NCBI RefSeq assembly: GCF_044324875.1 | Contig: NZ_CP172185.1 | Length of the DNA: 64,000 nucleotides | Source: Escherichia coli | GTDB lineage: Bacteria; Pseudomonadota; Gammaproteobacteria; Enterobacterales; Enterobacteriaceae | Direction: 5' to 3' (one strand) | Shown: positions 60,368-60,920 of the stretch, in pieces | Layout: every line of letters begins with the position of its first letter | Numbering within the stretch: the first letter of the stretch is position 1 | Notes under the pieces: generated by a model | Databases searched by the model: none | What the model saw: the letters and a program-made list of their open reading frames with translations, nothing else | Told to the model about the DNA's origin: nothing | Program-made: the position numbers and the translations under genes

Positions 60368-60779
60368 AAGAAAACATCCCCTGAGAGTTTAATTTTCGTC
60401 AAGATGCGTGGCGGACAATCCCCTGCCAGCGAAACGTTATCTTCCTGCTCCAGGTTTGCGACAAATTGGTGCGTCGCAAAAAAGCAAACGTTTAGCTCCG
60501 CGCATACAAAACGGGTGGTAAAAAAAGCAAACGATTATCCGGCGATCATAGCGGCTTTTTCAACCGAAGTTTGCTGCTTTTTTCTCTTTTATTGTCTTGA
60601 CGATGAAAAACCAGGCAATTGATGCGCAAACGTTATCGTCGATGCGCAAGATTGCAGCGTTATCGAGCCGCATACCGTTCAGGATTGCGATAAAAAATCG
60701 TCTGAGATGACAAAAATATTGCGGCTAAAAAGTGTACTTTTACACTGGAGAAGAAACGCCGGTGACATACAATTAAAGC

Positions 60780-60920
60780 ATCAACACCAACCGGAACCTC
60801 CACCACGTGCTCGAATGAGGTGTGTTGACGTCGGGGGAAACCCTCCTGTGTACCAGCGGGATAGAGAGAAAGACAAAGACCGGAAAACAAACTAAAGCGC
60901 CCTTGTGGCGCTTTAGTTTT
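60780..60920 (+). ncRNA. ryjA: Candidate small RNA RyjA, convergent with soxR and sharing its terminator
   Basis: Positional inference from the K-12 map (sRNA between soxR and ghxP) plus a terminator hairpin at 60894-60914; 5' boundary is a guess. Confidence 0.35.
60894..60914. terminator. Bidirectional hairpin at the soxR 3' end
   Basis: aaagcgcc cttgt ggcgcttt with T-run downstream on plus and A-run upstream. Confidence 0.5.

Follow-up and report, generated by a model that had tools for sequence, protein, structure and literature searches.

The small RNA SraL, or RyjA, was found in E. coli in 2001 (Argaman 2001, Wassarman 2001) and is described as a 140-nt RNA of stationary phase detected by Northern blot (PMC2190706, PMC3753932). 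In E. coli, RyjA rises 30-fold in stationary phase by RNA-seq (PMC4676190), and the start sites of sraL transcription are mapped in E. coli and K. pneumoniae (PMC3415461). A direct dependence of Salmonella SraL on RpoS has been described by means of a mutant, a lacZ fusion and ChIP (PMC3753932), and E. coli RyjA has been listed as RpoS-regulated (PMC12266141). In Salmonella, tig is repressed by SraL, which binds the mRNA immediately 5' of the Shine-Dalgarno sequence, as confirmed by compensatory mutants (PMC3753932), and its pairing with the rho leader prevents premature Rho-dependent termination with the help of ProQ, the protection of rho mRNA having been shown in that same organism (PMC6582626, PMC7192607, PMC6315103). 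Its decay is governed by poly(A) polymerase I together with PNPase and the degradosome, and Hfq makes it about three times as stable (PMC2190706); E. coli RyjA carries poly(A) tails and builds up when pcnB is mutated (PMC5389530), and, as quoted in PMC2190706, Wassarman et al. reported that the E. coli RNA was not co-immunoprecipitated with Hfq.

The other side of the region considered here has been studied with regard to purine repression. A PurR ChIP-chip peak was described in vivo at ryjA/yjcD (PMC3159470 Table 1), and adenine represses ghxP through PurR (PMC3159470, PMC3809563).

Here we analyse this locus within a 64-kb stretch of Escherichia coli DNA, hereafter the window, which is about 99% identical to MG1655. 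The genes follow one another in the order pdeC-soxS-soxR-ryjA-ghxP-yjcE, with the orientation inverted with respect to the K-12 map, and the spacer under study is the one between soxR and ghxP, the latter encoding a guanine/hypoxanthine transporter. The length of 545 bp given for this spacer in a preliminary description, made from the sequence alone, is exact by the ORF coordinates (Table 1). Of 5426 complete E. coli genomes, 5419 contain the spacer with a coverage of at least 80% (the query matched in 5420), the top identity being 99.8%; compared with K-12 it carries eight differing positions, all of them upstream of the sRNA.

Alignment with other genera divides the region into two parts, a conserved ghxP upstream region (60300-60656) and, from 60705 onward, the sraL promoter and gene. 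Between them, where the window has a junction of 48 bp, most genera carry about 770 bp with a gene for a 222-aa protein of the GST family; the Salmonella neighbour of sraL is indeed STM4267, a GST gene (PMC3753932). A tblastn search of the spacer, and of the window as a whole, detected no relic of this gene. The stretch separating ghxP from sraL varies in length. It measures 412 bp in the Escherichia loci, among which is an E. coli-like contig filed as a Bacillota MAG; some Citrobacter and a single Trabulsiella locus have 425-454 bp, some Kosakonia have about 560 bp, and all other loci have 1.09-1.33 kb. The preliminary description had regarded the spacer as too long for a simple promoter region and had accounted for its length by an sRNA. 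This explanation holds for the roughly 215 bp taken up by the sraL gene and its promoter; the remaining 290 bp or so constitute a conserved control region of ghxP.

Table 1. Features of the ghxP-soxR region, in positions of the window.
Feature	Positions	Strand	Basis or remark
ghxP ORF	59018-60367	-	ORF list
ghxP-soxR intergenic spacer, 545 bp	60368-60912		ORF coordinates
Putative conserved structured ghxP 5' leader, ~107 nt	60402-60507	-	Covariation, 66 distinct sequences
Leader helix P1 (predicted)	60507-60501/60408-60402	-	
Leader helix P1b (predicted)	60497-60488/60437-60428	-	
Leader helix P2 (predicted)	60479-60473/60462-60456	-	
Leader helix P3 (predicted)	60423-60419/60415-60411	-	
Weaker PurR-like box	60428-60443		Matrix; conserved
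Second strong PurR-box match AGCTAAACGTTTGCTT, also 5' strand of P1b	60482-60497		19.2 bits; conserved
Weak PurR-like box GGATAATCGTTTGCTT, overlapping the candidate ghxP -10	60525-60540		11.8 bits; conserved
Candidate ghxP promoter TTGAAA-18-GATAAT	60534-60563	-	Scan, 10/12 matches
PurR operator, published ryjA/yjcD ChIP-chip motif ACGATAACGTTTGCGC	60624-60639		18.4 bits; fully conserved (PMC3159470)
Junction of 48 bp; GST-family gene (~222 aa) at the equivalent place in most Enterobacteriaceae	60657-60704		Alignment
sraL promoter	60746-60779	+	Promoter scan
sraL/ryjA small RNA gene, 141 nt	60780-60920	+	Rfam RF01408 and K-12 ryjA b4459
SraL 5' domain; P1 nt 1-7/44-50 (60780-60786/60823-60829), enclosing a CCUC/GAGG helix	60780-60829	+	RNAalifold
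Conserved block CCGGAACCUCC, sRNA nt 12-22	60791-60801	+	Alignment
Segment CCACGUGCUCG, nt 24-34, complementary to K-12 tig leader -30..-19 (CGAGCACUGUG)	60803-60813	+	RNAduplex
Invariant A-rich block GAAAGACAAAGACCGG, nt 89-104, just 5' of the terminator	60868-60883	+	Alignment, fold
Terminator hairpin of sraL (+), presumably shared by soxR (-)	60889-60919		
8-nt overlap of sRNA 3' end with soxR CDS (stop codon 60913-60915 and last codons)	60913-60920		
soxR ORF	60913-61377	-	ORF list
soxS	61463-61786	+	ORF list

The stretch 60780-60920 on the plus strand is almost certainly the gene for SraL/RyjA, the known trans-acting sRNA of 141 nt of the Enterobacteriaceae. The Rfam family RF01408 (sraL) matches it over model positions 1-142 of 142, with 153.3 bits (E = 1.6e-35) against a gathering score of 39 bits, and the 141 nt are 100% identical to K-12 ryjA (b4459), which is annotated in NC_000913.3 as an ncRNA at 4277926-4278066, with an 8-nt overlap with soxR. 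The preliminary description had proposed RyjA in this spacer on the plus strand, convergent with soxR, about 140 nt long and ending near 60920, and had stated that the K-12 map places it here; on all these points it agrees with the Rfam match and with the K-12 annotation. The discrete plus-strand transcript on whose detection it had made the proposal depend is documented, for the identical K-12 sequence, by published Northern blots, RNA-seq and start-site maps (PMC2190706, PMC5389530, PMC4676190, PMC3415461). Nothing speaks against the identification, which is correct and ordinary: RyjA has been a familiar, annotated RNA of E. coli from 2001 onward.

A promoter had also been anticipated just upstream of 60780. 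The scan returns one there, with a -35-like TGGAGA (60746-60751), a 16-nt spacer, the -10 element TACAAT (60768-60773) and an A/T-rich TAAAGC; the -10 ends seven bases before A60780. Across 97 orthologous upstream regions the -10 (TACAAT, TACACT or TAGACT), the TAA that comes next and a CTGG(A/C) motif are conserved, and the intervening spacer is variable. RNA polymerase would then start at A60780 from the TACAAT element and its A/T-rich TAA discriminator. From the Salmonella work and the E. coli RNA-seq, we infer that sraL in the window strain likewise uses RpoS and is induced in stationary phase.

A pattern scan of species-representative genomes yielded 100 loci. The sRNA is found in 99 of them, all enterobacterial; the remaining one is a chance match in an archaeal MAG. 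The gene soxR could be located in 98 of the 99, always adjacent and convergent, with soxS beyond it wherever enough DNA was available. The sRNA is present in Mangrovibacter and absent from the two Erwinia loci examined, in which 41-75 nt separate soxR from the next gene. The comparison of some 30 genera shows sraL to be tied to the 3' end of soxR.

The consensus fold was obtained with RNAalifold from an alignment of 91 distinct sequences. In P1 of the 5' domain, four of the seven pairs show compensatory changes (in 16, 24, 6 and 17 of the 91 sequences), and so do three pairs of the central stem (in 1, 5 and 5 sequences). The 5' stem, the central hairpins and the terminator also appear in the minimum-energy fold. 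This covariation supports a fold of SraL in which a 5' stem-loop domain is followed by central hairpins, then by an A-rich linker and lastly by the terminator. The single-sequence fold is mildly more stable than shuffled sequences (z = -1.9); given such weak z-scores, here and in the ghxP leader described below, thermodynamic stability is not counted as evidence.

Several blocks stand out in this alignment. One is CCGGAACCUCC, also upper-case in the Rfam consensus, in which nt 12-17 are unpaired in the consensus fold and nt 18-21 (CCUC) pair with GAGG in the inner helix; its invariance and that of GGGGGAAACCC are partly forced, both being within the search pattern. The A-rich block GAAAGACAAAGACCGG lies outside that pattern and is invariant as well, with only GAC (nt 93-95) paired, to GUC (nt 51-53). 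Furthermore, the terminator stem, of 12 bp, is invariant in the 91 distinct sequences. For those working on SraL, the invariant blocks and the terminator stem show where a core function may be sought.

The arms of the terminator hairpin (60889-60901/60907-60919) comprise 13 bp with 100% complementarity and enclose a 5-nt loop, and the soxR stop codon (TAA on the minus strand) falls within the 3' arm. Folding energies are -23.8 kcal/mol for the plus strand and -25.9 kcal/mol for the minus strand. The preliminary description had stated that the hairpin overlaps the soxR stop codon, as it does, and that it can terminate transcripts from both directions. On the latter point, the hairpin is stable on both strands, and the terminator scan accepts the plus strand only, the soxR-side tail GUUUUCCG having four U in eight, one U under the rule. 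sraL transcription would stop at this hairpin, and it is plausible that the convergent soxR transcript is terminated there too. The hairpin is also the likely binding site of ProQ and Hfq on SraL.

How far the soxR stop codon lies from the sRNA 3' end could be measured in 98 loci. The distance is -29 nt in five loci (Kosakonia and one Enterobacter sp.), -7 nt in 12 (Escherichia, C. amalonaticus and some others), -1 to +2 nt in 34, 4 to 35 nt in 27, 47 to 150 nt in 19, often with REP-like palindromes as filling, and 512 nt in a single locus. Where the stop codon abuts the sRNA (34 loci) or lies inside it (17 loci), soxR is left without any other terminator, and a hairpin common to both genes is probably ancestral. 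Overlap with the soxR coding sequence is dispensable.

Could SraL act in cis on soxR, besides or instead of acting in trans? The preliminary description had speculated that the sRNA influences the stability of soxR mRNA. The 3' ends of the two transcripts would be complementary over up to about 40 nt, so that a duplex cleaved by RNase III, or a collision between polymerases, might lower or shape the soxR mRNA in stationary phase. The idea is not new, since Viegas 2007 noted the overlapping terminators and suggested an RNase III cut within them (PMC2190706). It draws on the 8-nt gene overlap and the common hairpin, on the convergence and adjacency of soxR in 98 of 98 located loci, on a stop codon placed inside the sRNA or at most 2 nt from its end in 51 of the 98 measurable loci, and on the unusual invariance of the terminator stem. 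An RNase III mutant of Salmonella moreover has one defined SraL band, larger and more abundant, though the half-life of SraL is unchanged (PMC2190706), and a preprint on polymerase collisions at bidirectional terminators offers a general context (10.1101/2022.10.23.513370). Nevertheless, conservation does not extend to the overlap with the soxR coding sequence: the distances span -29 to +150 nt, apart from the single locus at +512, and in several lineages of Enterobacter, Citrobacter, Cedecea and Lelliottia REP-like insertions part sraL from soxR while the sRNA is still conserved. An antisense RNA should display an extended complementarity to soxR kept through evolution; what is found is 8 nt of coding sequence. 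The complementary bases are, besides, all inside the stable hairpin that each RNA forms on its own, which disfavours intermolecular pairing, and no effect on soxR was found in the literature searched. We consider a cis action unlikely, and the comparison between genera speaks against the stability of soxR mRNA being what has kept the sRNA conserved.

Far less probable, to the point of being negligible, is that there is no sRNA here at all and that the hairpin is merely the soxR terminator and the spacer merely ghxP promoter DNA. RefSeq lists no RNA gene at this spacer in strains other than K-12, and the palindromic hairpin also yields a weak match to RF01408 on the minus strand (23.7 bits). 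Against this, the plus-strand match to the covariance model is full length and 114 bits over the threshold, the 110 nt preceding the hairpin are conserved and covarying across some 30 genera, a conserved promoter lies at the correct distance, and the published transcripts, by Northern blots and start-site maps, refute it. Equally negligible is a small protein encoded by the conserved block, for the two ORFs that exist mechanically (62 aa, 60707-60895 on the plus strand; 88 aa, 60660-60926 on the minus strand) are broken in the 91 orthologues by many indels that are not multiples of three (single-base gaps, deletions of 7 to 8 bases, a 16-base deletion in Kosakonia), the start at 60707 falls in the poorly conserved junction, and substitutions track base-pair covariation and have no codon periodicity.

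As the trans-acting RNA that SraL is known to be, it would pair imperfectly with mRNAs encoded at a distance, repressing tig and acting as an antiterminator in the rho leader, as in Salmonella; Hfq and ProQ would stabilise it, and poly(A) polymerase I, followed by PNPase and the degradosome, would remove it, according to the literature. For E. coli, what may be read here in the sequence is the complementarity to tig. The segment CCACGUGCUCG and the K-12 tig leader show the same 7+3 bp pattern as was validated in Salmonella (PMC3753932), with a duplex energy no better than that of shuffled controls, 31% of which equal it. Klebsiella, Raoultella, Kosakonia and Buttiauxella either lack the segment or have another sequence in its place, so that tig may be controlled by SraL in certain lineages only, and the core function may belong to the invariant blocks. 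With RNAduplex, none of the pairings of SraL with the leaders of the neighbouring genes ghxP, soxS and soxR was convincing (shuffles equal them in fractions of 0.043, 0.72 and 0.40, respectively), and full-length zipped duplexes with these leaders are not meaningful.

The part of the spacer adjoining ghxP is dense in PurR boxes. These were scored with a matrix built from 27 published sites, leaving out the ryjA/yjcD site, the weakest training site reaching 12.2 bits. The published operator (60624-60639) and the box at 60482-60497, which is not listed in PMC3159470, are the two best sites of the 64-kb window, the latter being the best. The spacer thus combines a 16-bp palindrome, a matrix match and a region bound in vivo, as expected of a PurR operator. 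A naive pattern, GCAAACGTTTGC with up to three mismatches, is uninformative, its 46 matches comparing with 45.6 expected.

Both hexamers of the candidate ghxP promoter are conserved and the spacer between them is variable; its -10 overlaps the third PurR box. This promoter would place the start of ghxP near 60527, with a 5' UTR of about 160 nt. In the Kim 2012 start-site supplement (PMC3415461), ryjA is present and there is no entry for yjcD.

This putative 5' UTR includes a stretch of about 107 nt in which base pairing appears to have been maintained across genera. In 66 distinct sequences, 92.4% of the cells at the proposed pairs are standard-paired, versus 28-42% when the partners are slid. 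Fourteen pairs are changed on both sides, against 9.3 +/- 1.2 in shuffles, none of 500 of which reaches 14, and 139 cells have two-sided changes against 38.5 in shuffles, figures to be read bearing in mind that the structure was derived from the same 66 sequences and that these are related to one another. Five of the seven pairs of P1 and six of the seven of P2 covary, and one pair of P1b occurs as C-G (31 sequences), U-A (23) or U-G (12) and is unpaired in none. The excess of G.U over A.C (111 versus 27) supports the ghxP-sense strand as that of the RNA. Single-sequence folds from eight loci in seven genera give the same architecture, with stability z-scores of about 0.0 to -1.8 relative to shuffles.

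The model that fits these pairs would be a three-way junction of P1, P1b-P2 and P3, in which P1b is built from PurR-box-like sequences. The loop of P2 reads CCCCU in most genera, complementary to the Shine-Dalgarno sequence AGGGG of ghxP, which is the sole hint of an expression platform; the loop is CACC in the window strain and CAGC in K-12. A 22-aa ORF opening at an AUG inside P1 was also considered and set aside, the AUG not being conserved (AAGCG, CAGCG or CUGCG in other genera).

The structure seems to be confined to this position. A covariance model built from the leader alignment (R1) finds one copy in the 64-kb window and none in the 40-kb K-12 region of xanQ-guaD-ghxQ-uacT, and blastn places the leader at a single site per E. 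coli genome, with no second copy; the model also matches, with lower scores, the corresponding place before ghxP in Mangrovibacter (27 bits) and in Erwinia (19 and 14 bits). A riboswitch would be expected to recur upstream of several related genes, and this structure is seen upstream of ghxP only; the conserved structure with compensatory changes that marks a leader RNA is present. A search of Rfam with the leader returned no family, even at E <= 10, apart from chance matches to eukaryotic families. The leader was not found in the literature on ghxP or yjcD with "riboswitch", and the first 200 of the 408 supplementary files of a catalogue of structured RNAs from the human microbiome contain no hypoxanthine or ghxP entry. 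To our knowledge, purine riboswitches have not been described in enterobacteria.

Part of the conservation of this stretch is explained by the binding of PurR to the DNA. We put the chance that about 60402-60507 on the minus strand corresponds to an undescribed, conserved and covarying leader of the ghxP mRNA, that is, to a real regulatory RNA, at slightly short of even. Such a leader would add a post-transcriptional layer over PurR, whether riboswitch-like, protein-binding or sequestering the Shine-Dalgarno sequence. The control region of ghxP may, in this sense, hold a new structured leader RNA interleaved with PurR operators, and, if this is true, the uptake of purine bases in enterobacteria gains a second control, at the RNA level.

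Compared with the systems described so far, the sRNA of the window matches K-12 SraL/RyjA (RF01408, b4459) in sequence, length, convergence with soxR and 8-nt overlap, the promoter features and the terminator being the same and the sRNA itself showing no differences. In Salmonella and most genera the gene upstream of sraL is the GST gene, whereas in the window it is ghxP. SdsR (RyeB) resembles SraL in being induced in stationary phase, dependent on RpoS, conserved in enteric genera and active in trans by base pairing (PMC3753932), but its sequence is unrelated and its targets are others (ompD among them); SraL, in turn, is mainly associated with ProQ and has its 3' end in common with a convergent protein gene.

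The hairpin shares with the bidirectional intrinsic terminators of E. coli a perfect GC-cored palindrome between convergent units, one flank of which is A-rich and the other U-rich. Unlike what is typical of them, one of the two units is here an sRNA, whose functional 3' hairpin is the terminator itself. Finally, the ghxP region has the published PurR motif in common with the PurR-repressed promoters of purR and purB, whose operators lie downstream of the start, and departs from them in spreading at least two strong and two weak boxes over about 210 bp, two of which double as the strands of a putative covarying leader helix.

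The 5′ leader of ghxP (60402-60507, minus strand) adopts in prediction a conserved three-way junction (P1, P1b-P2 and P3), and base-pair covariation within it is strong among 66 enterobacterial sequences, with weaker matches in Mangrovibacter and Erwinia. No Rfam family matches this leader, and no paralogous copy was found either by blastn in E. coli or with a covariance model applied to the window and to the K-12 xanQ-guaD-ghxQ-uacT region. The leader is a candidate for a new cis-regulatory RNA.

The same control region carries four PurR-box-like sites (60428-60443, 60482-60497, 60525-60540 and 60624-60639). 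The best of them, at 60482-60497 (19.2 bits with a matrix built from published PurR sites), differs from the box given in the PurR ChIP-chip study (PMC3159470), and together with the site at 60428-60443 it also makes up both strands of RNA helix P1b. Over its 107 nt, the leader of the window strain differs from that of K-12 at two positions only, both within the P2 loop (see the table). In other genera this loop contains a C-run with complementarity to the Shine-Dalgarno sequence; within E. coli the run is polymorphic.

Variants of the P2 loop of the ghxP leader, and locations of the insertions and of the additional gene found around sraL in compared loci
Feature	Location	Strand	Sequence or remark
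P2 loop, window strain	60463-60472	-	GCACCAAUUUG
P2 loop, K-12			GCAGCAAAUUG
P2 loop, E. whittamii and another E. coli			GCCCCAAAUUG
REP/BIME-like palindromes	L022, L025, L038, L040, L053, L102		sraL 3′ end to soxR stop codon
GST-family gene region (example)	L041:2048-3182		also in most of loci L003-L102

At the other end of the spacer, in the sRNA gene sraL (ryjA), neither the terminator stem (60889-60919) nor the A-rich block GAAAGACAAAGACCGG (60868-60883) varies in 91 distinct sequences spanning about 30 genera, in contrast to the 5′ stem, which covaries freely. This pattern is not accounted for by overlap with soxR codons. In a hairpin read from both sides, what is a G.U intermediate on one strand appears on the opposite one as an A.C mismatch, and such a two-strand constraint on a bidirectional terminator is one possible cause of the invariance.

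In several lineages of Enterobacter, Cedecea and Lelliottia, REP/BIME-like palindromes (e.g., GCCGGATAAGCG...CATCCGGC) are inserted between the sraL/soxR terminator and soxR, separating the two genes by 85-128 nt. A GST-family gene of 220-222 aa sits between sraL (or soxR) and ghxP in most Enterobacteriaceae and also in Erwinia; it is absent from Escherichia, some Citrobacter, one Trabulsiella locus and some Kosakonia. In E. coli its place is taken by a 48-bp junction (60657-60704), where tblastn, run on the spacer and on the whole window, detected no relic of the gene. Two Erwinia loci retain the order soxS-soxR-GST-ghxP-yjcE and lack sraL in a soxR-GST gap of 41-75 nt (L103:867-941, L104:1027-1067), which points to a gain of sraL within or at the base of Enterobacteriaceae, or else to its loss in Erwinia.

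At the sraL position no RNA gene is listed in the pipeline annotation of non-K-12 E. coli (NZ_CP023386.1 and other RefSeq records), although 5419 of 5426 complete E. coli genomes contain the sequence (at least 80% coverage of the ghxP-soxR spacer). On a contig deposited as "MAG: Bacillota bacterium" (L050), sraL matches that of the window exactly, the proteins from soxR to ghxP share 99-100% identity with those of the window, and the ghxP leader is almost the same. A contig deposited as "Chryseobacterium sp. 18061" (L076) has a soxRS-sraL-ghxP locus of enterobacterial type. Both records appear to be mis-binned or contaminated.

As for tig, a known target of SraL, the SraL segment that pairs with it has been validated in Salmonella (PMC3753932). 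Its counterpart here (60803-60813; columns 23-43 of the SraL orthologue alignment) is complementary to the K-12 tig leader. In the same alignment, sequences from Klebsiella, Raoultella, Kosakonia and Buttiauxella either have other bases in place of the segment or lack it, and for this reason the regulation of tig by SraL may be lineage-specific.
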